A stretch of 64,000 nucleotides of DNA from Patescibacteria group bacterium (GTDB lineage: Bacteria; Patescibacteriota; Minisyncoccia; UBA6257; UBA9933): contig JBBUDV010000006.1 of assembly GCA_038057075.1 (NCBI GenBank), positions 2,216 to 66,215 on the forward strand. The letters run 5' to 3'. The notes beneath the pieces are model-generated. The model did no database searches and was not told the origin of the DNA. It worked only from the letters and a program-made list of their open reading frames with translations. This document shows positions 1,744 to 53,400 of the stretch, one piece after another (the first letter of the stretch is position 1; every line of letters begins with the position of its first letter). A program made the translations under genes and the position numbers.

Positions 1744-1839
1744 TTAATTTATTTTATCCATAAACCTTCAAAGCCGCAAGTAGATAATATTGAAATCAAC
1801 AGGTTTAATGTTATAATTTAATAAATAACCTGATTCGTT

Positions 1840-3084
1840 ATGGCTGATAAACTCCAAAAAATAAAAGTAGAAGAAGAACTTAAGCGCGGAGCAGAGGTCT
1901 CAATTATTAGTCTTGTTGATTCATTGATTGAAAACGGCTATCATAGCCGCGCTTCGGATATTCATATAGATCCCGAAGAAAAACGGGTAAGGGTAAGATT
2001 AAGAATAGACGGCATTTTAAATGATGCGTTTATTCTACCTAAAGACATTCAATCCGAGGTTATAACGAGAATTAAGGTGCTTTCCGGACTTAGAACCGAT
2101 GAGCATCAAGCGGCTCAAGACGGCCGTTTTAGAACCGAAATTGAAGGCGGCGGGCCTATTGATCTTCGTGTCTCCATAGCTCCCACTTATTACGGCGAAA
2201 ATGCGGTAATGCGCCTTCTTATGGAAAAAGAAGAAAAATTTACTTTGGAAACATTGGGATACAACGAAAGAGACAGAGGAATAATAATGAAAGCCATTAA
2301 AAATCCTTACGGGATGATTCTGGCAACCGGCCCCACCGGTTCCGGAAAAACAACCACGCTTTACACGATTCTGAAAATTTTAAACACCAAAGAGGTCTCA
2401 ATAATTACGATTGAAGACCCCATAGAATATTCCCTTGAAGGCATTGACCAGATTCAGGCTAATACCAGAACCGGACTGACTTTTGCCACGGGTTTGCGTT
2501 CCATTTTGCGGCAAGACCCCAATATAATTATGGTCGGAGAAATTAGAGACGAAGAAACCGCGAGAATAGCCGTGAATGCGGCTTTGACCGGACATCTTTT
2601 GCTTTCAACTCTGCATACGAACGACGCCCCCACTACCCTGCCTCGTTTACTTGATATGCAGATTGAACCGTTTTTGATTGCTTCCACGGTTAATATCGCC
2701 ATCGGACAACGTTTAGTAAGAAAAATTTGCGAGAATTGCAAAGTTAACAAAGCCATTTCCACGGATGAGTTAAAAACATTATCCGAGTCCGTATCAACTG
2801 AAATTCTTTCTAAATATGAAAAAATCACGAAAAGCAAAAATTTTTCCAAAGGAAGCGGCTGTGAAAAATGTAATGACACCGGTTATCAGGGAAGAATCGG
2901 AATTTATGAAGTTTTGGAAGTTGACGATGATATAAGAAAGGCGGTTATCAGAAAAGCGGATGCCGGCGAAATCAGGGATATCGCCATAAAAAATGGAATG
3001 ACTACAATGATAGGAGACGGATTTAAAAAGGCCTCGGAAGGAATAACAACCATTGAGGAAATATTAAGAGTTATACATGAATAA
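1840..3084 (+). CDS. pilB: Type IV pilus / type II secretion assembly ATPase (PilB/GspE family), short form
   Basis: Walker A GPTGSGKTTTL, Asp/His boxes, and the C-terminal CxxC...CxxC zinc motif of GspE ATPases. Confidence 0.9.
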   Translation: MADKLQKIKVEEELKRGAEVSIISLVDSLIENGYHSRASDIHIDPEEKRVRVRLRIDGILNDAFILPKDIQSEVITRIKVLSGLRTDEHQAAQDGRFRTEIEGGGPIDLRVSIAPTYYGENAVMRLLMEKEEKFTLETLGYNERDRGIIMKAIKNPYGMILATGPTGSGKTTTLYTILKILNTKEVSIITIEDPIEYSLEGIDQIQANTRTGLTFATGLRSILRQDPNIIMVGEIRDEETARIAVNAALTGHLLLSTLHTNDAPTTLPRLLDMQIEPFLIASTVNIAIGQRLVRKICENCKVNKAISTDELKTLSESVSTEILSKYEKITKSKNFSKGSGCEKCNDTGYQGRIGIYEVLEVDDDIRKAVIRKADAGEIRDIAIKNGMTTMIGDGFKKASEGITTIEEILRVIHE

Positions 3085-3126
3085 ATAACCAACAACTAAT
3101 GACTAATAAAAATTGTAAGTTAATTT

Positions 3127-4188
3127 ATGACTAATTTATTTTTAAGAGTTTCCATTCAAGAAAAAATTCTTTTTGTAAAACATCTTGCCATGATGATTAA
3201 GGCCGGAATGTCTATCGTGGACAGTTTGAAAATGCTTAAGAAACAGGCGCGTTCAAAATCAATGGAAAAAATTTATGACCATCTTATTGCCGAAGTTTCA
3301 AACGGACAATTTTTATCAACTGCCTTGGAAAAGTTCAAAAATATTTTCGGCGACTTTGCCATAAACATCATACGAGTCGGAGAAGCCAGCGGAATTCTTT
3401 ATGAAAATTTGAATTATTTGGCGACGGAATTGACGAAAAAGAAAGAATTGCGCAAAAAGGTCGTTGGCGCCATGATTTATCCGATTATCATCATTATCGC
3501 GACTTTCGGCATCACCGGACTTTTAACCGTCTATATTTTTCCAAAAATTTTGCCGATATTTAAAAGTTTAAACGTAAAACTTCCGTTAAGCACCAAAATT
3601 CTCATTTCAGCCAGCGAATTTTTGATAAATTACGGAATTTACGCCATTTTTGGCGTCTTAGGATTGATTATTTTATTCTTTCTGTTTTTAAGAATCAGAT
3701 TAGTCCATTATTTTTTTGACAGATTGCTTTTGATGATTCCCCTTTTCGGCCAAATGTCTATAAATTACAATATGTCCAATTTTTGCCGCACGCTTGGATT
3801 GCTTCTGAAAAGCGACATTAAAGTTGTTGAGGCGGTTTCCATTACTGGAGACACTTTGAAAAATCTTGTTTACAAAAATGAACTGAAAAAAATCGCCGCG
3901 GACGTTACGAAAGGAGAAGAAATTTCCTTGCGGTTGGAGGAAAAGAAAAAATTATTTCCGCCTATGGTTTCGCAAATGGTGTCCATCGGAGAAAATACGG
4001 GCAATTTGAGCGAAACGTTGATTTATATTTCGGAATTTTATGAAAAAGAAGTTGATGATACCGCTAAAAATCTTTCAACTATTTTAGAGCCGCTGCTTAT
4101 GATTTTAATGGGATTAATCGTCGCTTTTATCTCGATTTCCATTATTACGCCAATTTATGAAGTCACTCAAGGACTTAATGTTAAATAA
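3127..4188 (+). CDS. pilC: Type IV pilus platform protein PilC/GspF
   Basis: 353 aa with T2SS-F domain architecture and three TM segments, immediately downstream of pilB. Confidence 0.85.
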   Translation: MTNLFLRVSIQEKILFVKHLAMMIKAGMSIVDSLKMLKKQARSKSMEKIYDHLIAEVSNGQFLSTALEKFKNIFGDFAINIIRVGEASGILYENLNYLATELTKKKELRKKVVGAMIYPIIIIIATFGITGLLTVYIFPKILPIFKSLNVKLPLSTKILISASEFLINYGIYAIFGVLGLIILFFLFLRIRLVHYFFDRLLLMIPLFGQMSINYNMSNFCRTLGLLLKSDIKVVEAVSITGDTLKNLVYKNELKKIAADVTKGEEISLRLEEKKKLFPPMVSQMVSIGENTGNLSETLIYISEFYEKEVDDTAKNLSTILEPLLMILMGLIVAFISISIITPIYEVTQGLNVK

Positions 4189-4624
4189 AAAACTTAGACA
4201 AAAGGGGCTGACACTGATAGAAATATTGATAACGACAACGATTATTGCGGTGATTTTCTCGCTTGGCCTTGTTTTTGGGATAGATTTTTACAGAAACTAC
4301 GCGTTTCATTCCGAAAGAGACGTAATAGTGAGTATTTTGGAAAAAGCCAGAAGTCGGGCCTTAAACAATATCAATCAGGAAGCGCATGGCGTTTATTTTT
4401 CAGGCGCGAATCACGTTATTTTTCAAGGGAATTCTTATGCCGCAAGAAATTCTTTATTTGATTTAATTATTCCAAAATCTTACTCGGCGATTTTAAGCGG
4501 ATTAAATGAAGTCGTTTTTAGCCAACTATCCGGAGAATCCAACGCGTCGGGAACGATTACTATCAGCGAAGACGGCCGGATTTCAGATATTTCAATAAAT
4601 AATGAAGGACGAATTAACTGGTAA
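4178..4624 (+). CDS. Prepilin-type N-terminal cleavage/methylation domain protein (pseudopilin/minor pilin)
   Basis: Class III leader MLNKKLRQKG|LTLIEIL with Glu at +5. The start is chosen at M8 of the ORF-track ORF (4157), which otherwise overlaps pilC by 32 nt. Confidence 0.7.
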   Translation: MLNKKLRQKGLTLIEILITTTIIAVIFSLGLVFGIDFYRNYAFHSERDVIVSILEKARSRALNNINQEAHGVYFSGANHVIFQGNSYAARNSLFDLIIPKSYSAILSGLNEVVFSQLSGESNASGTITISEDGRISDISINNEGRINW

Positions 4625-4760
4625 TCCCTCACCCTTCAAATACCGAAAACCCGAACATTTTACTTAAAAAACAAAGATTTAAAAATAAATGTTGATTTTA
4701 ATTTTGAAACGCAGAACTTGTAAAAGGTTTTATAAAATGCCGTATTTGAAGGGTGAGGGA
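4625..4760. mobile_element. IR-D family element copy 1 (18-bp terminal inverted repeats around ~100 bp AT-rich core)
   Basis: tccctcacccttcaaata (4625-4642) and tatttgaagggtgaggga (4743-4760). The left arm starts right after the upstream pilin stop codon. The right arm encodes YLKGEG of the next gene's prepilin leader, and that gene's ATG (4737) lies inside the element. Confidence 0.55.
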
Positions 4761-6107
4761 GGGCAAAGTATGGTGGAAATTTTGGTTGCTTTGACGATTT
4801 TCGTTTTAACCATCACGGCGGTTATTTTTCTTTCATCAGGAGGTCAATCGGTTTCAATTGATACCGAACTTAATAATCAAACAATTTACAAAGCCAAGGA
4901 GCAATTGGAAAACGCCCGGGCAACGGCAAAAAATAATTTTAGTTCTTTAGTTTCCGCTTCAAGCGCGGATAACGGATTTTTAAAAGAACTTATTGTGGAA
5001 AACCTCGGCGCTTATGAAAAAAAAGTTACAAGCAAAGTAAGTTGGCAAATAACGCCTTCGCGGACTCTTAAAACTGAACTTGCGACTATTATTTCCGATT
5101 GGAAAGGCGCAGTTGCGGTTGGCGGAGACACCGGCGGCGGCGGAATTTCCGGCGATTGGAAAAACCCCAGAACTTTAGGTTCTATTGATTTGGGTCCGGG
5201 AAATTCGGCAACCGGATTGGACGTTATTAATAAAATCGTCTATTTGTCAGCCGAGGCGTCTGACTCTAAAAAGCCGGATTTTTACATCGTTGATGCCACC
5301 GATGGAGAACATCCTTTTATTAAATCCAGTCTTAATACCGGCCCGGGCTTAAAAGCGTTGGACGTTGCCGGACAATACGCTTATCTGGCTAATAATAATG
5401 GAAACGCTCAATTACAAATTGTCAACGTAAGCGATCTTAATAATCCAATTTTGATTAAATCATATAAATTGCCGAATGTTTCTGGCGATGATGGAATCGC
5501 TCTAAGTATTTTTTACGTTGACTCAAAAATTTATCTTGGCATGAAAAAAATTGATGGTCCGGAATTTAATATTATTGATGTTTCTAATCCGAATAATCCA
5601 GTTTTGCTTGGCTCATATGAAATTAATGATAATGTTAATGATATTTATATAAACAGCAATCGCGCCTATCTGGCAACTGATTTAGGAAATGCAGGATTGA
5701 TTATTTTAGATGTTTCTAATTCGGCAAGCGTCAATCTTTTAGGACAAGCTTACTCTACGGATACTAATAGTGTTTTTAGTAATAATCCTTCGCTAACTTT
5801 TTTGAATCCGGGACAGGAATTTCGTATTGCCGACACCACCAATCCCAATTCAATTATTGATATAGGGTCAATCAATGTCGGCGATATAATCAATGATATA
5901 ACAAGCCGCGATTATTTGGCGTTTCTGGCAACTTCAAACAGCAACCGCAATTTCCAGATCGTTAATGTTTCTGATTCCGCTAATCCAACTTTATGGAGTT
6001 TTTTCAAGTTTCCTCAGGTGGCAACCGGCATAGATTTTGAAGATAATATCGTTTACGTTTCCATAAGAAGTAATGACGCGTTAAGAATCATAACGTCTTC
6101 TCTATAA
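4737..6107 (+). CDS. Pilin-like protein with prepilin leader fused to an LVIVD-repeat beta-propeller
   Basis: Leader MPYLKGEGG|QSMVEILVALTIFVL (Glu +5) followed by more than 6 LVIVD-type repeats (IVDATDG..., LQIVNVSDLNNP..., FNIIDVSNPNNP..., LIILDVSNSASV..., FQIVNVSDSANP...). The true start (M17 of the track ORF) lies inside the IR-D element. Confidence 0.6.
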   Translation: MPYLKGEGGQSMVEILVALTIFVLTITAVIFLSSGGQSVSIDTELNNQTIYKAKEQLENARATAKNNFSSLVSASSADNGFLKELIVENLGAYEKKVTSKVSWQITPSRTLKTELATIISDWKGAVAVGGDTGGGGISGDWKNPRTLGSIDLGPGNSATGLDVINKIVYLSAEASDSKKPDFYIVDATDGEHPFIKSSLNTGPGLKALDVAGQYAYLANNNGNAQLQIVNVSDLNNPILIKSYKLPNVSGDDGIALSIFYVDSKIYLGMKKIDGPEFNIIDVSNPNNPVLLGSYEINDNVNDIYINSNRAYLATDLGNAGLIILDVSNSASVNLLGQAYSTDTNSVFSNNPSLTFLNPGQEFRIADTTNPNSIIDIGSINVGDIINDITSRDYLAFLATSNSNRNFQIVNVSDSANPTLWSFFKFPQVATGIDFEDNIVYVSIRSNDALRIITSSL

Positions 6108-6108
6108 T

Positions 6109-6579
6109 ATGAAACAAAATAAAGGATTTACTCTAATAGAAACAATGATTTATTCAGCGTTAATTTCAATGATAATCGGCATGATTTTGGTATCCGTTTA
6201 CCAACTGATTATTGGAAACGAAAGAATAGCCCAAAAAAATATTATTGAAGAAGAAGCTAATTTTCTGCTCAAAAAAATTGAATGGGGATTAAACGGGGTT
6301 TCTTCAATAAACTCCCCCGCCTCGGGCGCGTCAAGCTCCGCGCTTTCAATAAATAAATTAAATTATTCTTATAACCCGGTTGTCTTTGACGCGGATTCGG
6401 GAAATTTGCGCGTAAAAAAAGGAAGCGGCGATCCGGCAATTTTAAACAGCCAAAATGTCTCCATAAACAATGTGGAATTTCAAAGGATTGCCGCAGTCGG
6501 CAACGCGCCTGAAGCCGTAAAAATAATCATTAACGTCAATCAAAGGCCGTATCAAACAACTATTTATTTAAAAAAATGA
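6109..6579 (+). CDS. Minor pilin/pseudopilin
   Basis: Leader MKQNKG|FTLIETMIY, canonical GFTLIE class III signal. Confidence 0.7.
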   Translation: MKQNKGFTLIETMIYSALISMIIGMILVSVYQLIIGNERIAQKNIIEEEANFLLKKIEWGLNGVSSINSPASGASSSALSINKLNYSYNPVVFDADSGNLRVKKGSGDPAILNSQNVSINNVEFQRIAAVGNAPEAVKIIINVNQRPYQTTIYLKK

Positions 6580-6956
6580 GAAACGGTTATCTGGCTTTAA
6601 CTTCAATAATAATAATTTCAATTTTGGTTTTAACCATCTCATTATCGCTTGAATTTTCCGGTTTTTTCGCCAGATTTAACATATTGGATTCGGAATATAA
6701 AGAAAGAAGTTTGGCTTTGACCGATGCTTGCGCTGACAAAGCGCTTTTAAAAATTGTCCAAAATGCTTCTTATCTGGGCAACGAGACAATAATAATCGGC
6801 GATAATTCATGTAATATCTTGCCGATAGAAACACTCGGCAACCAAAAAACAATTAAAACCTCCGCCGTTTATCAAAATGCCGCCTCTAACATCAAAGTAA
6901 TTATAAATATGACTGATTTTTCAATAATTTCATGGGAAGAATTGCCGGAATTCTAA
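6576..6956 (+). CDS. Hypothetical membrane-anchored protein in the pilin operon
   Basis: 126 aa with an N-terminal TM and a 4-nt overlap with the upstream pilin gene. No canonical G/E+5 signal. Confidence 0.35.
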   Translation: MRNGYLALTSIIIISILVLTISLSLEFSGFFARFNILDSEYKERSLALTDACADKALLKIVQNASYLGNETIIIGDNSCNILPIETLGNQKTIKTSAVYQNAASNIKVIINMTDFSIISWEELPEF

Positions 6957-7041
6957 TGTGCCCGGTGTGGATAACTTTAATTATTTCCCGGAAGTTTATG
7001 TTATAATTAAAAAAATTAAAAGGTCGAGGGAAACGAAAAAA

Positions 7042-7075
7042 GGTTTACCCCGTTAGAAATTTTTAAAAACGGGTT
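7042..7075. repeat. IR-C family element, compact hairpin copy, upstream of the pilin gene
   Basis: ggtttaccccgttagaaattttt aaaaacgggttaatcc. Shares the CCCCGTTAGAAAT core with 12000-12086 and 14429-14488. Confidence 0.5.
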
Positions 7076-7123
7076 AATCCTTGATTAAAATCTATCAGTT
7101 AAATCAGGAATTAAATAAAAATT

Positions 7124-7591
7124 ATGATTACTAAAATTTCTAAGCGGGGTTTTACATTAATTGAACTTTTGGTTGTTATCGGAATTATCGCGATTTTAGC
7201 CGCAGTTGTTATTGTCGCTTTAAACCCCGCAAGACAATTCGCGCAAGCCAGAAACACTCAAAGATGGAGTAATGTTAACACTGTTTTAAACGCAGTTGGA
7301 CAAAGAATGGCGGACAATAAAGGCGTTTTTGAAACCGCGTGCGCCGCAGGCGTCATTCCGACAGCTTCAACCACCATGGCAAACGGCGTTGGCAATTACG
7401 ACATAGCTCCTTGCATTATTCCGACTTATGTTTCAACGATGCCGTTTGACCCCAGAGCGACTGGCGCTCATTACACGAGCAACGCAGATTACAACGCCGG
7501 CTATAAAATACAAAGGGATGCGACAACAGGAAGAATAACAATCAGCGCTCCGGAAGCGGAACTTGAAGAACCTATCTCGGTAACCAGATAA
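7124..7591 (+). CDS. Type IV pilin (major pilin candidate)
   Basis: MITKISKRG|FTLIELLVVIGIIAILAA, followed by a strong terminator. Confidence 0.75.
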   Translation: MITKISKRGFTLIELLVVIGIIAILAAVVIVALNPARQFAQARNTQRWSNVNTVLNAVGQRMADNKGVFETACAAGVIPTASTTMANGVGNYDIAPCIIPTYVSTMPFDPRATGAHYTSNADYNAGYKIQRDATTGRITISAPEAELEEPISVTR

Positions 7592-7627
7592 TAAAAAAAA
7601 GAAGCCCTTCAAGGGCTTCTTTTTTAG
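7592..7627 (+). terminator. Rho-independent terminator after the pilin gene
   Basis: Stem gaagccctt/aagggcttc followed by a T-run. Confidence 0.7.
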
Positions 7628-7643: not shown

Positions 7644-8411
7644 TCATGATTTCTGACTCATAATCGCCGCGCCAAGCGCCGGGCCCAATTCCCCTAACCT
7701 ACTTTTAATAATAAGTGTTTTTTTGGCAAGCGGCGGCGCTATATATTTTTTAGCGACAGATCTTACGGTTTTTAAATCAACTTTTCCGGTTAAAATTCCT
7801 CCGCCGCCCAAAATCACAATATCGGGATTTAAAACGTTTATCAAATTGGCAACTCCAATGCCGATAATTTTGCTCCGGTCGCCGTATTTTTGAAACGCTT
7901 TTTTGGCGGCTGATTCTTCAAAAGTTTTATTGCCGTCAATTATAATATGTCCAACTTCGCCGGCGCTGTTGCTACTTCCTGAATAAATTTCACCGTCTAT
8001 CATTATTCCTGAACCTATGCCCGTGCCAATAGTTATAGCCAAAACATTTTTTTTGTTTTTAGCCGCTCCCAGTGTTGCCTCAGCCCGTAAAAAACAACGG
8101 CAATCGTTATCTATTTTAACTTTAGAATGGAATTTAGCGAAAAATTTTTTAGCATTCCATTTGCCCATAAACGGAAATTTTGATGTTTTTCCTAAAAATC
8201 CATATTCCCCGACCACGCTGGCCAACCCAACGCCAACACCGCTAATTTTATTTTTTCCGACAAGTTTTACGATTTCCGTATCCAAAGTTTTCAAAAAAGC
8301 CGTCTTGCTTTTAGGCGTTAAAACAATAAATTTTGACAAGATTTTTTTTGAGACGGCATCAACCAAAACTCCCCTGATTTTAGTGCCGCCTATATCAAGA
8401 CCGATATACAT
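7644..8411 (-). CDS. ROK family sugar kinase/regulator-like protein
   Basis: N-terminal LDIGGTKIR and the ROK glycine-rich signature GIGSGIMIDGEIYSGSSNSAGEVGH. Confidence 0.75.
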   Translation of the reverse strand: MYIGLDIGGTKIRGVLVDAVSKKILSKFIVLTPKSKTAFLKTLDTEIVKLVGKNKISGVGVGLASVVGEYGFLGKTSKFPFMGKWNAKKFFAKFHSKVKIDNDCRCFLRAEATLGAAKNKKNVLAITIGTGIGSGIMIDGEIYSGSSNSAGEVGHIIIDGNKTFEESAAKKAFQKYGDRSKIIGIGVANLINVLNPDIVILGGGGILTGKVDLKTVRSVAKKYIAPPLAKKTLIIKSRLGELGPALGAAIMSQKS

Positions 8412-15065: not shown

Positions 15066-16700
15066 TTACTGACCGAGTAATGATTTAAATAAATTAATCA
15101 CTTTACCCAATAATGACTCGTTTGCCGAAGACGGAGGAGGCAACGTTTCCCCGCTTGGAGGTTGCGCGGGCAACATCATGCCTCCGGGATATTGCTGCGG
15201 CTGTATTTGTATTACTCGCTGTTGTATGTTTTTTAAACATTCCTCGGGATTTTCTGATTTAGAGCAAAATTCTTTACATTCCTCGGGACTACTACAAGGC
15301 GCTTCTGCCGTTCCTTGAGGAAACATTTGAGGCGTTTGCCCCTCTACCTCTACTCCGGGCATCATTATATTTTGAGGGATGCCGGGCATTTGAGGCGCTT
15401 GCATCATATTGCCGGGCTGTTTAGAACCGTATTGTTCAAAACAACTTTTGGCTTTCTGTATAAATTCGCCTTTCTCTTCATCTTTCATAACGCCAGATTG
15501 CAATCTGCCGACGGCATCCTCGCCTAAAGTTGTTCTCAAACATTCCTTCATTTCTTGCGACATTGATTCAAATGAAGGCATACCTGTCGGACGACCGTCG
15601 CCACCGGGGCCCATCTGGCCTCCACCAACGCCTGGCGCGCCCATTACGCTTTCAAAACATGCCCGCATTTTATCTCCAATATCTCTTGGAGGCATAATGG
15701 AACCGCTTTTAAGTTTTTCCATCATTTCCGCGCCGATTGTGGAATTAAGGCATTCAATCACTTTTGGCGGCGCCTGGTTCAATATTTCTTGAAATTTTTG
15801 TTTGCCTCCTTCCATTCTTTGAATATCTTCTTGTTTTATAAAGCCGTATTCTTTCGCAAAATTAAAACAGGATTCTTGGTTTTCGGGACTGCTGCAAAAT
15901 GCCTCGCATTGTTCTTTACCGCGGCAATTGCCCGGACCTTTGCCTCCGGTTTTACGCGCCATTTCAGCTTCTTCAGCAGACATAAATCCGGCCGCCTCGG
16001 CGAATTTCATACATTCTTCAAAATGACTTTCCTCGGAACAATAAACGTCGCATTCCTTCTTGCCGCGGCACTGCGGCGGCTTTGCGCCTTTCTTAATGGC
16101 TTCTAAAACCTTTTGCGATTCTTGCTTTTCGTTTTCATCCATTAATCCGGCCGCCTGCGCGAAAATTATACACTCTTCCATATGGTCAACGCTGCCGCAG
16201 TATAAGTCGCATGATTTTTTATTGCCGCAAGAAGGCGGTTTTACGCCTTGTTTTATAGCAGCTCTCACTTTTTTAGCTTCATCTAATTCTTTTGGAGGCA
16301 ATATGTTGTTTTTTTCGGCAAATGTCACACATTCGTCTATATGGGAAATTTCATCGCAATATTTTTCACAGGAATCCTTTGTCGCGCAATTTCCAGGCCC
16401 TTTGCCGGCTGCTAAAAACTTTCTGGCGACATTAATTTTTTCTTGGCTCATTAAATTGTTCTTTTGGGCGAAATCCAAACACTTTTCCCTGTTTGCCGGC
16501 TTATCGCAATAAGCCCTGCAAGCAATTTCATTTTGGCAATTGCCCAATTCCGTAATAGGATATTGGATATTCGCCGCGACGCTTATGCCTGCGCCGGAAT
16601 CGGTTTGCGCCAGCGCGTTGCCGATTAAAATAACCGAAAATATAATTCCAAAACTTAAAACAATTGCGCTAAGATATTTTGTATTCATAATATTATTCAA
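15066..16700 (-). CDS. Secreted cysteine-rich tandem-repeat protein with Gly/Pro/Met/Gln-rich region
   Basis: Signal peptide, then about 6 copies of a ~45-aa module C-x4-5-C-x3-C-x7-8-C (e.g. GNCATKDSCEKYCDEISHIDECVTFAEKNN). Confidence 0.5.
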   Translation of the reverse strand: MNNIMNTKYLSAIVLSFGIIFSVILIGNALAQTDSGAGISVAANIQYPITELGNCQNEIACRAYCDKPANREKCLDFAQKNNLMSQEKINVARKFLAAGKGPGNCATKDSCEKYCDEISHIDECVTFAEKNNILPPKELDEAKKVRAAIKQGVKPPSCGNKKSCDLYCGSVDHMEECIIFAQAAGLMDENEKQESQKVLEAIKKGAKPPQCRGKKECDVYCSEESHFEECMKFAEAAGFMSAEEAEMARKTGGKGPGNCRGKEQCEAFCSSPENQESCFNFAKEYGFIKQEDIQRMEGGKQKFQEILNQAPPKVIECLNSTIGAEMMEKLKSGSIMPPRDIGDKMRACFESVMGAPGVGGGQMGPGGDGRPTGMPSFESMSQEMKECLRTTLGEDAVGRLQSGVMKDEEKGEFIQKAKSCFEQYGSKQPGNMMQAPQMPGIPQNIMMPGVEVEGQTPQMFPQGTAEAPCSSPEECKEFCSKSENPEECLKNIQQRVIQIQPQQYPGGMMLPAQPPSGETLPPPSSANESLLGKVINLFKSLLGQ

Positions 16701-20305: not shown

Positions 20306-20725
20306 CTATTTTACTCCGTGTTCATTAAAAAATGCCGAATACTTTTTATCCGCGACAAGTATGTGTTTTAACAGCCAATTACCGGCATATTCGGCAACTT
20401 CTTCGGATAATTTCTCAATATTTTGATCATCTTTCCTGATTCTGCTTATATAACCATTGGCCATTTCCCTGAACTGGTTATGCGCTTCCACATGAGGAAC
20501 CGCATCTGGATAATCTAATTTATCAAAAAGCTCTTCTTCGGTGCCCAAATGGTAAAACGCGTAATTTCCCATTTGGTTGACAATATCAAATAAAACTTCC
20601 TTTTCTGACGCTTTACTGTTTATAAAATCGGCGATTTTATTTACAATATCCAAAAAATGTCGATGTTGCTCGTCAATCATCTCAATACTCACGCTATAAT
20701 CTTTTGTCCAAATAAATTTTTTCAT
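20306..20725 (-). CDS. Hemerythrin-like (bacteriohemerythrin) protein
   Basis: His/Glu ligands spaced in the HHE pattern (H..HF...H...EE...H...H..D). Confidence 0.7.
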   Translation of the reverse strand: MKKFIWTKDYSVSIEMIDEQHRHFLDIVNKIADFINSKASEKEVLFDIVNQMGNYAFYHLGTEEELFDKLDYPDAVPHVEAHNQFREMANGYISRIRKDDQNIEKLSEEVAEYAGNWLLKHILVADKKYSAFFNEHGVK

Positions 20726-21795
20726 AAGTTGTCCTCTTTGTCTTTGTCGTTGTCAATATCACGAAGTTTTTCTTCCGCTCTGCGAGCCGCCTCTTCAATA
20801 TTTTCTCGCTCTTGTTCTAAACTATCGGCTTCTTTTTCAAATTTTTCTTTCGCTTGTTCTTCTTGTTCTTCTTTCAACTCATTTTCCTCTTCTTTTGCTT
20901 CATTCAAATCCTCAATTGCCTCCCCTACTTTATCCAAACTTTTTTCCGCCTGCTTAGCTAATTGTTTCGCGCCAACATAGTTCTCTTTAGCAAAAAGTTC
21001 TTTAGCTTGCGCAAGAAGCTTGTCAAATTTTTCAAACGCTCCGGCAGGAACACTCGCGCCCTCCTCAACGGCTTCGTCTAATACTTCTTGCCTTTCCTCT
21101 TCAGCTTCTTTTATGGCTTTTTCCGCGTCCTCTTTTTTCTCCATCTCTTTCTCAATCTTTTCTTCTTCCTGTTCTAATGCTTCTTCCTGCTCATCTTCTT
21201 TGAGCTCCAAAAGTTCTTTTTGAGCTTTTATTTCGCCGAGTTCCTTTATCAATGCCTCAACTTGGGCAATATCGTTGGCTCGTCTTGCCTCGCGAATTTT
21301 TGCTTTAAGCTCGTCCTCTTTTGCTTCAAGGGAACGCTTTTGATCTTTAAAGGCCTGTTTGAAAGCTTCTTTGTTCGCGTCAAAATCATCGCTAATGCTT
21401 TTTGCGAGCTCGCTCACATCTTTTCCTTTGGATTTTTCGTCTTCAATAATACCGGCGGCTTTGGCAATGTTTGCCTGAAGCCGAGATTGAGCCACTTCCA
21501 ATCCTTTGGCATTCACGCCTTTCGTTTCCAAAATAATTTTAATTTCAGCGATACGCTCGGCGGCAAAAGTAATTTGAAGACGAGCTTTCCCTTCGGGATT
21601 AAAAGTGAAAAATTCTTGCAACGCTTCTCCGAATCTGTCAAAAAAATAAAACGGGCTTTCCGGAGTTAAACCGGCATTCGGCAATACGGCTTGGTTTTGA
21701 GCAAATCCTTCGACTGGGCTCAAAATAAAAGCTAAAACGGGGACAAACAGGAACGAGATAAAAATAACTTTTATAGTTTTCATATATATCATCAT
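20722..21795 (-). CDS. Secreted DUF5667-like protein with long E/K-rich coiled coil
   Basis: Signal peptide, then a PESPFYFFDRFGEALQEFF-type N-domain, then about 200 aa of charged coiled coil. Confidence 0.5.
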   Translation of the reverse strand: MMIYMKTIKVIFISFLFVPVLAFILSPVEGFAQNQAVLPNAGLTPESPFYFFDRFGEALQEFFTFNPEGKARLQITFAAERIAEIKIILETKGVNAKGLEVAQSRLQANIAKAAGIIEDEKSKGKDVSELAKSISDDFDANKEAFKQAFKDQKRSLEAKEDELKAKIREARRANDIAQVEALIKELGEIKAQKELLELKEDEQEEALEQEEEKIEKEMEKKEDAEKAIKEAEEERQEVLDEAVEEGASVPAGAFEKFDKLLAQAKELFAKENYVGAKQLAKQAEKSLDKVGEAIEDLNEAKEEENELKEEQEEQAKEKFEKEADSLEQERENIEEAARRAEEKLRDIDNDKDKEDNL

Positions 21796-22732: not shown

Positions 22733-23158
22733 CTATTTCAAATTAACTATATAGGTTTTGATAAATTTTTCTATTGCCAATACAGTTTCGGTTTTTAATT
22801 TTGGGTTTGATTCCGCCACCCATTTGGCAAAATTATAAAGTTCTTGATTATCAACTTCCAACCATTTTTTGTTTTTGTGTAAAAAATAAAAAAGTGTCAT
22901 CATGGCAATCCGTTTATTTCCATTTTTAAACGGATGGTTTTTAACCATTAAATAAAATAATACCGACACTTTCCCAATAAATCCTTTATATAACGGCTTG
23001 CCGCCGAAAGTTTGGAATGGCGCGATTAAACAACTTTCTAAAATATTAGGATAACGCGAACTAAAATCAGGAATTGGCTCATCCCATGCCATCATTTCTT
23101 TTGCCAACCAATAAGCGACATATTCAACTTGAATGATTGAAATTATTTTTATTTTCAT
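22733..23158 (-). CDS. Doc/Fic-family toxin, copy 1
   Basis: Doc-type motif HPFKNGNKR. Confidence 0.7.
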   Translation of the reverse strand: MKIKIISIIQVEYVAYWLAKEMMAWDEPIPDFSSRYPNILESCLIAPFQTFGGKPLYKGFIGKVSVLFYLMVKNHPFKNGNKRIAMMTLFYFLHKNKKWLEVDNQELYNFAKWVAESNPKLKTETVLAIEKFIKTYIVNLK

Positions 23159-23338
23159 TATTCTTTTCCTAATAATTTCAAAGTTTCGCCATATTCCTTG
23201 ATGGTTTTTTTAACGGCTTTTTCAATTTCTCGTTTTTTATCTTCAGTTAAAACCTCTCCCAAAACATCCGGCAAATTTTTTTTATTAATCATAAAATTGC
23301 GACCGATTTTTTGGGCCTTAATTTTACCGGACTTGATC
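22755..23338. repeat. Large direct repeat arm 1 (doc + 3' part of the HTH gene)
   Basis: About 584 bp near-identical to 26076-26659; the flanks have diverged. Confidence 0.85.
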
Positions 23339-23412
23339 TTTTTAAACACAGCTACCCGGCTGATACCCAAAAGCTTTGCCACCTCAATTGTGGAAAACAA
23401 TTTTTTATTCAT
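23158..23412 (-). CDS. Excisionase-family HTH DNA-binding protein (putative antitoxin/regulator), copy 1
   Basis: STIEVAKLLGISRVAVFKKIKSGKIKAQKIGRNFMI. Confidence 0.6.
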   Translation of the reverse strand: MNKKLFSTIEVAKLLGISRVAVFKKIKSGKIKAQKIGRNFMINKKNLPDVLGEVLTEDKKREIEKAVKKTIKEYGETLKLLGKE

Positions 23413-25847: not shown

Positions 25848-26056
25848 AGTTATAAAGTTAATTTAATTAATGTTTTAAGGTTTTATCCTAAAGTTTAGTT
25901 TTTTAAAAAACTCGACTAAATTTTATTTAAACAACTATCTTATAAACAATGCTAACATACAAAAACCAAATAGTCAATATAATTCATAAAATACTTTGCT
26001 CCCTCTGTACAACGAAATCCGAACGCATTTTGAAAGCGATTTCATTTGGCATATTT

Positions 26057-26479
26057 TTAAGATTTTACTATGTATGTTTTGATAAATTTTTCTATTGCCA
26101 ATACAGTTTCGGTTTTTAATTTTGGGTTTGATTCCGCCACCCATTTGGCAAAATTATAAAGTTCTTGATTATCAACTTCCAACCATTTTTTGTTTTTGTG
26201 TAAAAAATAAAAAAGTGTCATCATGGCAATCCGTTTATTTCCATTTTTAAACGGATGGTTTTTAACCATTAAATAAAATAATACCGACACTTTCCCAATA
26301 AATCCTTTATATAACGGCTTGCCGCCGAAAGTTTGGAATGGCGCGATTAAACAACTTTCTAAAATATTAGGATAACGCGAACTAAAATCAGGAATTGGCT
26401 CATCCCATGCCATCATTTCTTTTGCCAACCAATAAGCGACATATTCAACTTGAATGATTGAAATTATTTTTATTTTCAT
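26057..26479 (-). CDS. Doc/Fic-family toxin, copy 2
   Basis: Identical over most of its length to copy 1; the C-terminus differs (KTYIVKS). Confidence 0.7.
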   Translation of the reverse strand: MKIKIISIIQVEYVAYWLAKEMMAWDEPIPDFSSRYPNILESCLIAPFQTFGGKPLYKGFIGKVSVLFYLMVKNHPFKNGNKRIAMMTLFYFLHKNKKWLEVDNQELYNFAKWVAESNPKLKTETVLAIEKFIKTYIVKS

Positions 26480-26659
26480 TATTCTTTTCCTAATAATTTC
26501 AAAGTTTCGCCATATTCCTTGATGGTTTTTTTAACGGCTTTTTCAATTTCTCGTTTTTTATCTTCAGTTAAAACCTCTCCCAAAACATCCGGCAAATTTT
26601 TTTTATTAATCATAAAATTGCGACCGATTTTTTGGGCCTTAATTTTACCGGATTTAATA
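26076..26659. repeat. Large direct repeat arm 2
   Basis: Near-identical to 22755-23338, offset 3321 bp. Confidence 0.85.
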
Positions 26660-26736
26660 TTCTTAAATACCGCTACTCGACTAATACCTAACAATTTAGC
26701 GACTTCAATTGTAGATAAAAACTGTTTCCTTATCAT
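26479..26736 (-). CDS. Excisionase-family HTH protein, copy 2
   Basis: N-terminus diverged (MIRKQFLSTIEVAK...); the rest is identical to copy 1. Confidence 0.6.
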   Translation of the reverse strand: MIRKQFLSTIEVAKLLGISRVAVFKNIKSGKIKAQKIGRNFMINKKNLPDVLGEVLTEDKKREIEKAVKKTIKEYGETLKLLGKE

Positions 26737-33358: not shown

Positions 33359-34351
33359 TTATACAATTATAGTTTCCTTACTCCGTTGTTCCAAAGAAAT
33401 TCTGGCAAAGCCGATTGCCAACAAAATCTCATAAATCACAAAAGTTAAAATAGATATCACCGATCTTAACGGCCAACTTATCGCTTCAATGGTCAAAAAA
33501 ATCAAAAGCCCAATTATTGCGAAAACAATTTGTTTGCCTCTCTCAGATAAGTTTAAAAATTTTTCTCTGGCAATCTGATAAAGTGAATCTGGAATATTCA
33601 TTTTTGGATTTATTTTAATTCCCAAAAAAGAAGACACTCTGTCGTAAAATTCGGAAGCGCTTTTACCGATTATTTGCTGTTTGGCGGTTTTAGACAAATT
33701 TTCCGCGCCGGGAAGCCGGTTTAAACTTTGTTCTGAAGTTTTTAACGCTATTTCTTCAAGAGTAGAAGATATAGTAAACCCGGGCAAAAATTTATTAATT
33801 ATAAAATCGCCGGACGACATAACTTCACGAAACAAAAAAGGCGAAACCGGAAATCTGTCTTGGTCGGCTACGGCCGAATAAAACGGCATCAGACCGCCGA
33901 ATAAAAGCGCGAAGGCCGCAACTGCTTTGGGCAAAACCGCCCGGCTGGTTTCCCAAAAATTTATTTTCATATTATTTTCAAGAACCTTTCTGCCGCTGTA
34001 GTTGCCCCAATATAAAACCGCAAAAATAATAACGGAAAAGGACAAAATAACCAGCGACTCGGTGATAAAAGTAATAACCATCGCCAAACTTTCAAGAACC
34101 AAAATGAAAGCCGAAGCGCTGTTTTGCCTTGTAAAAAACGTCTGGAGAAGAAAAATTATTGAAAATACCAAACCCAAAACGCTTGCCCAAAAAAGAGCGT
34201 TCCAATCGGTTGTTCTAAAAAAGTCCTTTAAAAACCAGCCGAACGCGAAAGCCGCCGCGATGCCCAAAATCCAAAGAACAATTATTTTAATTGATATAGA
34301 CCCAGGATGTTCAAGAGAAGTTTTTTTGTCAAGAAGCTGGATTTCCGTCAT
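33359..34351 (-). CDS. Hypothetical polytopic membrane protein
   Basis: 330 aa; overlaps the dnaK stop by 23 nt. Confidence 0.35.
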
Positions 34352-47547: not shown

Positions 47548-48186
47548 TTACAGCGCCATTATAAAATTTTTACCCATGTTTTTCTTGGCTTGATACATCG
47601 CGATGTCCGCTCTTTCAATAAGTTCATATAAATTGAAAATTTCTTCCTTGCGTCTTTTACTAATAGCCGAAATCACGCCGAAACTCGCTGTAAATTTCCT
47701 TTTTTCCTTAACTTCGGGAATCCGCAATCTGGCCAATTTATCTTTCATTTTAGCCGCGACTTTATACGCTTCATTTTCGGAAGCATCCAATAAACCGATA
47801 ATAAATTCATCTCCTCCCCATCGGGCGACAACATCAAATTCCCTGACTGAATTGGAGAATATCTCGGCCGCCGATTTTAATAATTTATCACCCGATTTAT
47901 GGCCGTAAATGTCGTTGACTTTTTTCAGATCGTCTATGTCTATAAAAATCAAAGAAAAATTTTTAATATTAAACCCTTTTCTTTTTTCTTTTTTCGCGTG
48001 GACCGCATGCCCGGCTTCGTTTAAAAATTTCCACGCCTCCCTGACAAAACCCTGACGGTTATAAAGGCCTGTCAAAAAATCACGGTCAGCCGCCATTTGA
48101 AGACGCACAATTTCCTTATCTTTCTTTTCAGTTAAACTGACTAATCGCTTAATTTCGTTTTTTAATTGTTTAATACTTTCCGCCAT
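47548..48186 (-). CDS. GGDEF-domain diguanylate cyclase (coiled-coil N-terminus, no sensor domain)
   Basis: RDFLTGLYNRQGF and RWGGDEFIIGL. Confidence 0.8.
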   Translation of the reverse strand: MAESIKQLKNEIKRLVSLTEKKDKEIVRLQMAADRDFLTGLYNRQGFVREAWKFLNEAGHAVHAKKEKRKGFNIKNFSLIFIDIDDLKKVNDIYGHKSGDKLLKSAAEIFSNSVREFDVVARWGGDEFIIGLLDASENEAYKVAAKMKDKLARLRIPEVKEKRKFTASFGVISAISKRRKEEIFNLYELIERADIAMYQAKKNMGKNFIMAL

Positions 48187-50477: not shown

Positions 50478-53400
50478 CTATTCCGCCTCTTTACTTTCTT
50501 TTTCAATAATCGGCTTTACGCGATAGCCGGTGCCTGCGGGAATCAATCTTCCAATAATGACGTTTTCTTTAAGACCCCTTAATTTGTCGGTTTTGCCTTC
50601 CGTCGCGGCTGCGACCAAAATTCTATTGGTTTCCTGGAACGATGCCGATGAAAGGAAGCTCTCGGTTGAAAGAGACGCTCTGGTGATGCCGACTAAAAGC
50701 TGTTTCGCTTTTGCCGGACTTTTACCTTTAGCTTTTATTTCTCGGTTAACCTCCAAAAATCTCGATTTTTCTACAATGTCGCCAAGAACGAATTCGGTAT
50801 CGCCCGGTTCTTTTATCATCACTCTTGAAAACATCTGTTTAACGATAATTTCAATGTGTTTGTCGTTTACCGCGTTTCCTTCCGGAACGTAAATCTTCTG
50901 AACTTCGTTTATGGCGTATCTTTCAACAGCGTCCTTATCCTTATGATTAAACAATTCTTTTAAATCCAAACTGCCTTCGCAAAGCTGGTCGCCTTTGGAA
51001 ATCTTGTCTTTGGCTTTAACGAAAACCTTAATGCTTCTCGGTATTAAATACTCGATAACTTTTGATTTTTTGTTTTTGGAAACCTTAAGCAATATCGCCT
51101 TCATGCTGTCGCGTTCTTCAATATCTTCAATCACCCCGTCGCTTTCCGCCAAAATCGCTTTGCCTTTTGGCAAACGAACCTCAAATATTTCTTCAACTCT
51201 CGGCAAACCGTGCGTGATGTCAACTCCGGCAATGCCACCCGTATGAAAAGTCCTTAGAGTAAGCTGGGTTCCCGGTTCGCCGATTGATTGAGCGGCGATA
51301 ACCCCCATCGCTTCGCCAATCTGCGCCAAACCTCCGCGTCCCAAATCAAGGCCGTAACACTTGGAACAAACGCCGTATAAAGTTTTACACCTGAGCGGAG
51401 AGCGCACTTTAACTGCGACAATTGACGATTCTTTTCCGATTTTTTCCGCTTTCTCTTTGTCAATTATTTCTCCCGCTCTGGCCAGAATTTTATTGCCGAC
51501 TTTGACGTCATTAAGCAAAGTTCTGCTGAAAATTCTTTGGCCGAAATTATAACCGTATTCATCTCCGTCAGCCCTGAAAAGTTCAATGCCTTCGGTTGTC
51601 CGACAGTCGTTCTCGCGAATAATTATGTCCTGCGCCACATCAACCAATCTTCTAGTAAGATAGCCGGCAGACGCCGTTTTAAGCGCGGTGTCGGTCAACC
51701 CTTTTCTGGAACCGTGAGTGTTGATAAAAAATTCCAAAACATTCAACCCTTCTTTATAAGACGACTTGACGGGCAATTCAATTGTTTCGCCTCTCGGATT
51801 TTGCACTAAGCCCTTCATACCAAGCATCTGCACCGCTTGAGCCCAGGAACCTCTGGCTCCAGAATCAACAATATAATGAACCGCGTTGAGTTTCTTGGTA
51901 GCGCTCAAAACTTTCGGCACGATGACCGCAATTTTATCCTTGGTTTTTTCCCAAACCGCGATAATTCTTTGGCGGCGTTCTGAATCGGTAAGCAAACCAT
52001 CGTCATATTGTTTTTCAACCACTAATATTTCTTTTTCCGCTTCTTCAATAATTTTGCCTTTTTCCGCGGGAACAAGCAGGTCTTCCATACCCCAGCTGAT
52101 TCCCGAAGCGGTGGCGTATCTAAACCCTATTGTTTTGATTTTATCTAATATCTTCCAAGTGTTTTCAATGCCGTATTTGGTAATAACCGCGGCGACAATT
52201 CTCTGTAATTCTTTTTTATTCATAATTTCATTTATAAATCCGAAGTCCTTCGGCAAAACGCCGTTAAAAATCACTCTCCCGACAGAGGTCTCCAAATACT
52301 TATTTTTAGCAACCCAAATTTTAACCAAAGCGTTGATGTCAACGTTGCCGAATTCGTAAGCTAAAACCGCTTCATCAAACGAAGAAAAAACTTTACCCGT
52401 TCCTTTGGCTCCTTCTATTATTTTAGTAAGATAATAACAACCTAAAATAATATCTTGAGAAGGCGAAGCTATCGGGTCTCCCGTTGACGGCTTTAAAATA
52501 TTTCTGCTTGAAAGCATTAATTTTTCGCATTCGTCCTGCGCCTCTTTTGAAAGCGGAACGTGAACGGCCATCTGGTCGCCGTCAAAGTCGGCGTTAAACG
52601 CGGAACAAACCATAGGCGGTATTTTAATCGCCAAATCCTCTACAAGAACCGGTTTAAACGCCTGAATGCCCAAACGATGTAAAGTAGGAGCGCGATTTAA
52701 AAGAACTTTTTTATCTTTAATCACTTCTTCTAAAATAGCCCAGACCTCGGCCGGCGCCTGTTCTATAAGACGCGTGGCGTTTTTAATGGTAAAAGCGAGA
52801 CCTTCTTTGATAATTTTTGAAATAACGAACGGCTTGAATAATTCCAAAGCCATTTTTTTCGGCAAACCGCAAGTATCAAGCGGCAATTCCGGACCGACAA
52901 CAATAACGGAACGGCCGGAATAGTCCACGCGTTTACCCAAAAGATTCTGCCTGAAACGGCCTTGCTTTCCTTTTAAAATGTCCGCCAAAGACCGAAGCGG
53001 CCTTCTTTGCGCCGACATCTGCGGCGAAGCCGTGCCCCTCGCGGTATTGTCAATCAAAGCGTCAACCGCTTCTTGAAGCATTCTTTTTTCGTTGATAATG
53101 ATTATTTCCGGCGCTTTTAATTCTATGAGTTTCTTTAATCGATTATTGCGATTGATGACACGCCTGTACAAATCGTTTAAATCCGAAGTGGCGTAACGGC
53201 CGCCGTCAAGCGGAACCATGGGCCGAAGTTCCGGAGGCAAAACCGGAAGTATGCTTATAATCAGCCATTCCGGCTTCATTTTATTTTTCATGAACGAATG
53301 CGCGAGTTTGAGCCGAGTCATAAGCTTTTTGACTCTTCCTTCTTCGCGGGTATACTCCAATTCTTTTTCGGTTTCTTGATACATCTTTTTTAAATCAATA

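Follow-up and report, generated by a model that had tools for sequence, protein, structure and literature searches.

The 64,000-nucleotide stretch of DNA analysed here (the window) belongs to a Patescibacteria bacterium, an ultra-small organism from groundwater, and its positions 1840-7625 constitute a single operon on the + strand, which encodes a PilB-type ATPase, a PilC-type platform protein, four minor pilins and a major pilin, and ends in a hairpin. All seven open reading frames (ORFs) described in the initial annotation were found, and several of their junctions overlap or abut (4188/4178, 6107/6109 and 6579/6576). A promoter-like site (1790..1817, + strand), composed of TTGAAA, a 16-nt spacer and TG-TATAAT, is located 22 nt 5' of the ATPase gene; with 11 of 12 matches and an extended -10 TG it obtained the top score in the scan, as a consensus match of a kind whose count in the region is not above that of shuffled sequences. 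A bidirectional intrinsic terminator (7595..7625, assigned to neither strand) lies between the pilin operon and a convergent ROK-family gene (7644-8411, - strand), and displays a 14-bp stem and a 3-nt loop with A and T runs on either side; its fold (-18.9 kcal/mol, z = -5.15) was equalled by none of 200 shuffles, in agreement with the strong terminator previously proposed after the pilin block.

The first gene (1840..3084, + strand) encodes a 414-aa extension ATPase of the PilB/GspE type (T2SSE, PF00437, E 5e-121), in which the N-terminal domains of canonical PilB are missing. This protein scored 483 bits with TIGR02538 (PilB) and 498 bits with TIGR02533 (GspE), both below the equivalog cut-offs, and 246 bits with ComGA (cut-off 300), while its best sequence matches in the PDB were PilB of Geobacter and Myxococcus and PilF of Thermus (E about 1e-107), with alignments beginning at about residue 166-190 of these proteins. 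The 353-aa platform protein of the PilC/GspF type (3127..4188, + strand; T2SSF, PF00482, two stretches, E 4e-55) reached 280 bits with GspF, 243 bits with PilC, the latter below the equivalog cut-off, and 133 bits with ComGB (cut-off 240). The major pilin (7124..7591, + strand; 155 aa), whose gene is preceded by a 167-nt spacer, reads MITKISKRG/FTLIELLVVIGIIAILAAVV, where the slash here and below marks the predicted cleavage position; it carries the motif G/FTLIE and was recognized by N_methyl (E 6e-8) and TIGR02532 (E 2e-8). Its matches among PDB sequences correspond to the N-termini of type IVa pilins from Geobacter, Thermus and Pseudomonas, and its N-terminal 35 residues are nearly invariant between related loci.

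The remaining four genes encode minor pilins that can be compared with an H-I-J-K tip set. Minor pilin 1 (4178..4624, + strand; ORF from 4157), whose gene overlaps the end of pilC, carries the leader MLNKKLRQKG/LTLIE (N_methyl, E 8e-6) and is H-like, on account of a sub-threshold, almost full-length match to ComGD (E 1.6e-5), which is the H equivalent; the start that yields 148 aa is that of the public gene calls, and the family motif, G/F(T)LIE, has Glu at +5 in 66 of 71 members. Minor pilin 2 (6109..6579, + strand; MKQNKG/FTLIE, N_methyl E 1.3e-6) belongs to a family with the motif G/FTLIE (Glu+5 in 77/78), matched ComGE and ComGF at the N-terminus only, and is considered J-like by gene order alone. 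The 126-aa product of the next gene (6576..6956, + strand; MRNG/YLALTS) had been left as hypothetical, and no Pfam or NCBIfam match was indeed obtained for it; however, it is a conserved pilin-like protein, with a homologue at the same position in most of 80 related loci, an intact six-gene order through this ORF in 56 of them, and the family motif (K/R)G/YIA[LI]TS followed by a hydrophobic stretch, with G4 and two Cys invariant. Since it has no Glu at +5, a lack by which K subunits are recognized (PMC9934059), we consider this fourth pilin-like protein as K-like, the J and K assignments being those indicated by gene order and one motif. By gene order, the "I" slot of the set is taken by the product of the gene at 4737-6107, a protein with LVIVD repeats.

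This protein, of 456 aa, begins with a class III signal peptide leader, MPYLKGEGG (4737..4763, + strand), in which the last residue is Gly-1, and thus presents the prepilin motif MPYLKGEGG/QSMVE that had been read in the sequence. The length of 456 aa formerly given for the mature protein was found to be that of the precursor, and the mature form would have 447 aa; public gene calls start at 4737, and an alternative start at 4689 would produce a 25-aa leader. The pattern G/QSxxE is maintained in the family: of 110 homologues, 101 have Gly-1 (Ala in 8), 106 have Gln+1 and 106 have Glu+5, which is replaced by Asp in 4; hydrophobic residues fill positions +6 to +12, and the leaders, mostly of 9-15 residues, contain K or R in every case. 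The signal motif is also conserved in 80 species-level loci and in 148 representatives at 50% identity, and Glu+5 with the hydrophobic stretch after it in 72 species-level loci. The initial annotation had put forward, as the observation that would count against a prepilin, a generic transmembrane anchor with no such conservation in homologs, and the conservation of G-1, E+5 and the hydrophobic alpha1N across the family speaks for the prepilin. N_methyl (PF07963) remained below threshold on this protein (13.6 bits, E 0.052, cut-off 21.2) and TIGR02532 gave no match to it; the presence of Gln instead of Phe at +1 may contribute to the low N_methyl score, and the signature is present in a few family members.

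Three modules were delimited in the LVIVD protein: an I-type (GspI-like) pilin module (residues 10-121; 4764..5099, + strand), with an alpha1 helix on a 4-stranded antiparallel sheet; a Gly-rich linker, GGDTGGGGISGDW (residues 122-144; 5100..5168, + strand), of nearly invariant sequence, in which D131, G133 and G134 are conserved at 90% or more and G139 and W141 are invariant; and a seven-bladed beta-propeller of LVIVD repeats (residues 145-456 plus the stop codon; 5169..6107, + strand), PF08309 being matched with 45.8 bits in 3 stretches (cut-off 20.2). The AlphaFold (AF2) model (pLDDT 92.4, pTM 0.80) displays a 55-residue alpha1 helix (12-66), four strands (74-120), the linker, whose sole regular secondary structure is a short helix (122-127), and the 7-bladed propeller, that is, the N-terminal pilin helix plus propeller expected beforehand. 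The lollipop fold of pilins (an alpha1 of about 50 residues on an antiparallel beta-sheet) is thus found here with the PilB and PilC genes, for the co-encoded ATPase and platform, directly upstream, and the product is a true pilin-propeller fusion. The pilin module found its best structural matches in the tip-complex pseudopilins GspI and GspK, and the propeller in generic WD40-like propellers. The choice-of-anchor B model TIGR04312 was below its cut-off (32 bits vs 100, residues 278-352 only), and no catalytic motif was identified in the protein. Furthermore, the propeller is acidic (pI about 4.3), as it is, strongly so, in each of the 67 homologues compared (pI 4.05-4.81, net charge -9 to -28).

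As for the distribution of the locus, the seven-gene order (PilB, PilC, minor pilin 1, LVIVD pilin, minor pilin 2, the 126-aa protein and the major pilin) was recovered complete in 50 of the 80 related loci; the remaining ones can be read as truncations of this arrangement, the major pilin occupies another place in two of them, and loci of diverged lineages show the same order as well, so the comparative genomics proposed for the locus revealed synteny conserved across related lineages. The LVIVD gene is present in every complete copy of the cassette. Relatives are encoded in 142 Patescibacteria species genomes, and at E <= 1e-10 the pilin module turned up in about 1,600 clusters of 50% identity. 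The mean pairwise identity is 57% for the propeller against 36-44% for the pilin module; blades 1 and 7 reach 72% across the family, blade 5 is variable and contains indels, and some relatives carry Ig-like Big_3_5 domains after the propeller, as in surface adhesins.

In accordance with the earlier remark that pilD, pilT and pilM/N/O are absent from the window, phmmer and Pfam scans of its ORFs recovered none of them: a PilB query against all six-frame window ORFs returned PilB itself only, no further prepilin motifs were found in the window, and Pfam detected no Peptidase_A24, PilT or PilM/N/O in 39 other window ORFs, a scan that left out a handful of ORFs, including two large ones at 50478-57294. 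Likewise, in the four homologue loci whose flanks are annotated, no prepilin peptidase lies closer than 10 kb to the LVIVD gene. For Hainich Patescibacteria genomes, PilM and PilO have been reported somewhere in the genome (PMC8672522).

Modular pilins were defined by Raynaud et al. (2021) on Streptococcus sanguinis PilB (vWA) and PilC (lectin) (PMC8179133), for which the concept and the placement at the tip were established experimentally (PMC8179133, PMC9934059). Dataset S1 of that study contains about 30 prepilin-LVIVD proteins (IPR012902-IPR013211), the motif being "of unknown function", and the study mentions 12 LVIVD copies in one protein of Ca. Falkowbacteria (PMC8179133); IPR013211 corresponds to LVIVD (PMC10210494). 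The modular-pilin design and the combination of prepilin and LVIVD are therefore already catalogued and not new, and the LVIVD pilin, which agrees with the definition of Raynaud et al. (2021), is a real and widely conserved example of this known design. Shared with the modular pilins are the small N-terminal pilin module, the short linker, the bulky C-terminal domain that is not pilus-specific, the monoderm-type organism and the predicted tip location in the minor-pilin complex. In contrast to S. sanguinis, where PilB and PilC bear the modules and the I-like PilA has none, the module is here a complete 7-bladed propeller and is carried by the I-type subunit. To our knowledge, no member of the LVIVD pilins has been studied experimentally. 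The N-methylation motif model does not recognize the Gln+1 variant, so most members are overlooked by catalogues built on signatures; since the N_methyl/IPR012902 signature is precomputed for only 2 of 120, the catalogue of Raynaud et al. undercounts the LVIVD pilins.

Among I subunits, GspI/EpsI/XcpV of type II secretion systems (equivalents PilV and ComGE) share with the LVIVD pilin the Glu5 and the second place among four minor pilin genes of which the last has no Glu5, which together with the GspI-like head supports the I-type assignment; GspI, however, has about 100 residues and no extra domain, the identity is only 8-12%, TIGR01707 (gspI) was below threshold on the LVIVD pilin (13.9 bits, E 0.06, cut-off 44), and a profile search against PDB sequences yielded no pilin below E 0.8. 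Since the host is a monoderm without a secretin, a pilus is to be expected here rather than a secretion pseudopilus.

PilY1/PilC of diderm type IVa pili may be analogous in function, as it also places a beta-propeller at the tip via a minor-pilin complex; nevertheless, PilY1 is not a pilin but an independent protein that has a Sec signal and a propeller of the IPR008707/PF05567 type, whereas the propeller here is of the LVIVD type and fused to a protein with a prepilin leader. PF05567 gave no match on the LVIVD pilin at E <= 0.1 and PilY1 was not among its top 50-60 structural matches, so a PilY1 homologue was rejected in favour of a functional analogue only. The Com pilus of Firmicutes (comGA-GG) resembles the locus in its seven genes (ATPase, platform, one major and four minor pilins, the last without Glu5), in having no PilMNO, PilT or secretin inside the operon, in a peptidase encoded elsewhere and in minor pilin 1, which resembles ComGD. 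A Com pilus was rejected too: the ATPase is nearer to PilB/GspE than to ComGA, both ComGA and ComGB scores fall below their cut-offs, the major pilin is third in Com and last here, and none of the Com minor pilins has a propeller.

Taken together, the motifs and the synteny, along with the predicted fold and the likeness to GspI, are best explained by a compact monoderm-style type IV filament operon in which the LVIVD protein is the I-type modular minor pilin and acts as tip effector, a reading to which we assign a probability of roughly 0.7; cleavage, tip location and adhesion are its predicted parts. The precursor would enter the membrane via the alpha1N helix, and a prepilin peptidase encoded elsewhere would cleave after Gly-1, leaving Gln+1. 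Together with the J-like subunit and the Glu5-less K-like one, the I module would then nucleate a tip complex, which the H-like subunit would join to the major pilin, and as the filament grew below this complex, one propeller per pilus would be displayed at the tip. The pilus-tip location, already suggested in the initial annotation, is well supported, as we infer from the GspI/GspK-like module, the predicted fold and the synteny; one point against a propeller at the very apex is that K sits above I in the crystal structure of GspIJK, so that a propeller there would depend on the reach of the linker. The propeller would be a ligand-binding effector, and its most likely role would be attachment to another cell or surface, as performed by the separate PilY1 propeller of diderm pili and, in S. 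sanguinis, by the vWA module of PilB and the lectin module of PilC; adhesion is a hypothesis that we infer. The propeller is more conserved than the pilin module, and the lineages that share it presumably differ in their partners; this pattern suits a shared ligand, or a function in structure or assembly, better than host-specific adhesion.

Patescibacteria constitute a large share of groundwater bacteria, and pili are their most often cited means of attachment; we know of no tip adhesin defined so far for Paceibacteria-type lineages, for which the LVIVD pilin family offers a concrete and testable candidate. It also extends the modular-pilin idea, in that the I subunit, the initiator of the HIJK set, can carry the effector module, although the gain is incremental and not conceptual, because both the design principle and the domain combination are already in the literature.

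A rather unlikely alternative keeps the same pilin and tip complex and regards the propeller mainly as an assembly, priming or stability factor, a bulky cap or plug that would control extension and retraction. An assembly/priming function has been proposed for part of the role of PilY1, and the high conservation of the propeller, above all of blades 1 and 7, is consistent with it, as are the presence of the LVIVD gene in all complete cassette copies and the small size of the K-like subunit, which makes the I-borne propeller the only bulky element of the set. HIJK sets are, moreover, essential for filament initiation (PMC9934059). However, Com pili and many type IV filaments assemble without a bulky tip module, and the variable blade 5 with its indels and the added Ig-like domains look like ligand-facing diversification; the two roles are, in any case, not mutually exclusive.

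Considerably less probable is a protein outside the filament, either as an uncleaved anchor or as a cleaved, membrane-retained pseudopilin showing its propeller at the surface, or a propeller that is an enzyme. Propellers of the LVIVD and choice-of-anchor B kinds are as a rule found at the cell surface, attached through various anchors, and the sub-threshold TIGR04312 match, the N_methyl E-value of only 0.05 and the Gln in place of Phe at +1 agree with such a reading. Nonetheless, G-1 and E+5 are conserved far beyond the needs of a plain anchor, the canonical F or S occupies +1 in more distant relatives, and Gln+1 with G-1 and E+5 is a known class III variant of archaeal EppA substrates (PMC3875500). 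The globular head with a GspI-like pilin fold and the fixed position of the gene within the pilin gene set also argue against it, and the lack of an identified catalytic motif against an enzyme.

Pilin DNA receptors (ComP, ComZ) use basic surfaces, which counts against the propeller as a receptor of this class. Although the Com-like economy of the cassette (no adjoining PilMNO, PilT or secretin) and the ComEC/ComFC carried by Hainich Patescibacteria (PMC8672522) would suit a competence-type pilus feeding nucleotide-auxotrophic Patescibacteria, the propeller is strongly acidic in 67 of 67 homologues and YncE matches it no more closely than dozens of unrelated WD40 propellers do, so that the DNA scavenging suggested in the initial annotation is disfavoured as a direct activity of the propeller and this is the least probable of the readings.

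Within the preferred reading of a tip effector on the I subunit, it is tentatively conceivable, and rather doubtful as a whole, that in Paceibacteria-type lineages the tip propeller moved onto the I subunit as a one-polypeptide substitute for PilY1 plus minor pilin, that the conserved acidic propeller serves as a universal contact device for a common ligand on partner cells or particles, and that Gln+1 leads to a differently finished N-terminus (e.g., pyroglutamate and not N-methyl-Phe) marking the initiator. The class III signal with Gly-1, Gln+1 and Glu+5 is that of the EppA-processed pilins of Methanococcus maripaludis (PMC3875500), a likeness limited to the cleavage-site motif, and the other pilins of the operon carry, unlike EppA substrates, the bacterial G/FTLIE. 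Given the F or S at +1 in more distant relatives of the LVIVD pilin, Gln+1 is a derived trait specific to its clade and does not point to archaeal ancestry.

Seven ORFs, all on the + strand, span window positions 1840-7625. Pfam and NCBIfam searches identified a PilB/GspE-type ATPase (1840-3084; PF00437, E 5e-121) and a PilC/GspF platform protein (3127-4188; PF00482, E 4e-55), followed by the minor pilin mp1 (4157/4178-4624), the LVIVD protein (4737-6107; PF08309, 45.8 bits against a cut-off of 20.2), a second minor pilin, mp2 (6109-6579), a 126-aa protein that matches no Pfam or NCBIfam family (6576-6956) and the major pilin (7124-7591); mp1, mp2 and the major pilin carry the prepilin N-methylation motif. 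Several gene junctions abut or overlap (4188/4178, 6107/6109 and 6579/6576), and a 167-nt spacer lies upstream of the major pilin gene. The top-scoring promoter-like site of the region is found at 1790-1817, and a hairpin with a 14-bp stem and an adjoining run of T lies 3' of the major pilin stop (7595-7625), displaying -18.9 kcal/mol and z = -5.15, with 0 of 200 shuffles folding equally well. The type IV pilus block described in the initial annotation is thereby borne out; the 456 aa given there for the mature LVIVD protein is a real length, that of the precursor, and the mature form would have 447 aa.

The N-terminus of the LVIVD protein reads MPYLKGEGG↓QSMVEILVALTIFVL (↓, predicted cleavage). 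A homologue search through 5.8 billion proteins yielded more than 588 full-length relatives, whose named sources are Patescibacteria (Jorgensen-, Lipton-, Azam- and Brennerbacteria). Among the matches listed, 110 included the N-terminus, and these displayed Gly-1 (101/110) or Ala-1 (8/110), Gln+1 (106/110), and Glu+5 (106/110) or Asp+5 (4/110), followed by a hydrophobic stretch; the leaders mostly comprise 9-15 residues, with K or R in every one. Ten exceptional homologues are mostly gene calls beginning within the helix, and the same signal pattern was seen across 72 species-level loci. Therefore, the reading of this segment as a generic membrane anchor, which the initial annotation had itself set against its proposal of a prepilin leader, is rejected.

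Class III signals that combine Gly-1, Gln+1 and Glu+5 are already known from Methanococcus EppA substrates (PMC3875500). In the window, the Gln+1 codon is located at 4764, and the other three prepilins of the operon retain F or L at +1. Among 148 remoter representatives, position +1 holds Q 47 times, F 38 times and S 26 times, which rules out the archaeal-type signal as a sign of a different origin; the LVIVD pilin family thus descends from ordinary G↓F..E prepilins, Gln+1 being a clade-specific variant. The N_methyl model scored the LVIVD protein at only E 0.05, and its signature was precomputed for only 2 of 120 relatives; Gln+1 may be partly behind both. An N-terminal Gln could, moreover, be cyclised to pyroglutamate, without N-methylation.

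The helix-plus-propeller fold that the initial annotation had proposed to check was obtained with AlphaFold2, using a 67-sequence alignment (mean pLDDT 92.4, pTM 0.80). In the model, a disordered leader precedes a single long helix (residues 12-66); next come four strands in antiparallel arrangement (74-120), a linker rich in Gly (122-144, GGDTGGGGISGDW) and, finally, a 28-strand propeller (145-453). No sequence-related solved structures were found for the LVIVD protein; PDB-sequence profile searches with the pilin module, mp2 and the 126-aa protein matched the N-terminal helix only, and Pfam scans of 26 members matched nothing past that helix. Fold comparison was the sole approach that classified the pilin module; thus, the head is predicted to be a minimal pilin fold of the tip-complex pseudopilin kind, with GspI as the closest. 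The linker itself (5100-5168, GGDTGGG...SGDW) is nearly invariant, with D131, G133 and G134 conserved in at least 90% and G139 and W141 invariant; some family members have PPPDPxDSGGG at this position. The linker is thus conserved beyond the needs of a passive tether.

When each species was represented by one genome, the scan found 142 genomes that encode a relative, and the meaningful titles among these are Wolfe-, Jorgensen-, Lipton-, Brenner-, Colwell-, Azam-, Falkow- and Uhrbacteria or "Paceibacterota". Many third-party (TPA) metagenome bins with the cassette (the loci L010, L012, L015, L023, L067 and others) bear the title 'uncultured Candidatus Saccharibacteria' or 'uncultured Gammaproteobacteria'. 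Such titles, apparently placeholders or errors, were not relied on as taxonomy and should not be taken to extend the range of the family. Comparative genomics of the locus, as initially suggested, revealed a conserved order: in phmmer searches of the 80 retrieved loci with the seven window proteins, PilB-PilC-mp1-LVIVD-mp2-126-aa protein-major pilin was found in 50, and the remaining loci fit truncations of the same order, with the major pilin placed differently in two. Furthermore, the gene tables of four diverged loci match the cassette order.

Both mp1 and mp2 carry the canonical G↓FTLIE motif. The 126-aa protein, initially set down as hypothetical, belongs to a conserved family that starts with (K/R)G↓YIA[LI]TS, in which +5 is Thr or Ile and never Glu, and the Gly and two Cys are invariant; a missing Glu5 marks the K subunit capping HIJK tip complexes (PMC9934059). 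In addition, nearly all of mp1 can be aligned with ComGD, the H equivalent, although the E value (1.6e-5) is sub-threshold. Taken together, the four minor-pilin genes can be read as an H-I-J-K series in which the LVIVD protein occupies the I slot. Fold and position support the I assignment, motif and position support K for the 126-aa protein, position alone supports J for mp2, and the ComGD profile points weakly to H for mp1.

Some Jorgensenbacteria loci encode a 230-aa multi-TM ORF that separates the H-like pilin gene from that of the LVIVD pilin (L007, 9312-10004; L028, 7276-7980; L041, 1097-1699; also L008), which is confined to a few loci and absent from the window and most others. It was considered as a hidden prepilin peptidase and set aside, with no Pfam match and no GxGD-type motif seen in its translation.

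The initial annotation also held that pilD, pilT and pilM/N/O are missing from the window, and this was confirmed: neither a second T2SSE-family ATPase (PilT) nor additional prepilin motifs were found there, Pfam scans of 39 other window ORFs detected no Peptidase_A24 or PilM/N/O, and none of these genes was found within 10 kb of the LVIVD gene in four homologue loci. The window stems from metagenomes of the Hainich groundwater, and PilM and PilO are reported from most Patescibacteria genomes of that aquifer (PMC8672522). In the window ATPase, the N-terminal domains of canonical PilB are missing: it aligns with PilB and PilF from their residue ~166-190 onward, and it is nearer to PilB/GspE than to ComGA. 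Thus, the cassette resembles Com in its economy, yet it is not a Com operon.

The best-supported model, to which we give a probability of about 0.7, is that the LVIVD protein is an I-type modular pilin bearing its propeller at the pilus tip. A peptidase encoded elsewhere would cut the precursor after Gly9, the I-type module would, together with the J-like and K-like subunits, nucleate a tip complex, and the H-like subunit would link that complex with the major pilin. As filament growth proceeds from the tip towards the base, every pilus would end in one propeller, on a flexible, sequence-conserved linker. The modular-pilin principle has been experimentally shown for PilB and PilC of S. sanguinis (PMC8179133, PMC9934059), and PilY1 of diderms would be a functional analogue of the LVIVD tip propeller.

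Adhesion is the leading candidate role for the propeller, the main alternative being assembly or capping. Mean pairwise identity is 57% in the propeller versus 36-44% in the pilin module; blades 1 and 7 reach 72%, and blade 5, the site of indels, 40%. These differences suggest that the propeller has a common ligand or a structural role, and that one patch of it is diversifying. A conserved stretch, GIDFEDN, covers residues 431-437. Ig-like Big_3_5 domains are appended in some relatives, as in surface adhesins. Of two remoter relatives, P0233 (1073 aa) has four C-terminal Big_3_5 stretches, and P0201 (803 aa) has a weak, sub-threshold Ig-like C-terminal match. A propeller acting as DNA receptor was put aside: it is acidic in 67/67 homologues, with a pI of 4.05-4.81 and a net charge of -9 to -28, which makes direct capture of DNA less likely.

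No paper linking LVIVD to pilins in its text was found in the literature collection searched. Raynaud et al. (2021), however, looked in InterPro for proteins that combine IPR012902 with a further domain of any kind, and their Dataset S1 includes IPR012902-IPR013211 architectures in seven variants and ~30 proteins (8+8+7+4+1+1+1); the article itself mentions a Ca. Falkowbacteria protein in which this "motif of unknown function" occurs 12 times (PMC8179133). IPR013211 is the LVIVD repeat (PMC10210494). Therefore, both the domain combination and the concept were already on record. Our analysis adds that the module is, as modelled, a complete seven-bladed propeller, that its carrier is the I-type subunit within a full HIJK set, that the seven-gene cassette is conserved over a large part of Patescibacteria, and that the signature used for the catalogue misses most members. 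The pilin-module profile retrieved 1,624 clusters at 50% identity (E <= 1e-10), and the propeller is present in 115 of the best 148 representatives. The finding is thus real and its initial interpretation essentially right: rather than a new kind of system, the LVIVD pilin is a good, testable candidate pilus tip effector of Paceibacteria-type Patescibacteria.

Other features were observed in the window. Two - strand ORFs, 15066-16700 (544 aa, TTG start) and 33359-34351 (330 aa), matched no Pfam family at E <= 0.001; the former is also called as a gene in public contigs, without a family on record. A 212-aa protein with a stand-alone diguanylate cyclase (GGDEF) domain (47548-48186, - strand; PF00990, E 4e-37) is encoded in this reduced Patescibacteria genome. 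An ECF-type sigma factor (61670-62272, - strand) overlaps a downstream DUF5667 protein (60916-61677), and the two may form an anti-sigma-like pair; a second DUF5667 protein is located at 20722-21795 (- strand). Finally, a direct repeat of ~640 nt with 99-100% identity (~22735-23380 and ~26056-26700, offset 3321 nt) contains in each copy a Fic/DOC-domain ORF (22733-23158; 26057-26479) and ~220 nt of flank, with small family-less ORFs in between. The second copy falls where the GC content of the window is lowest (0.30, at 26-28 kb); the repeat could represent a duplicated cassette or an assembly artefact.
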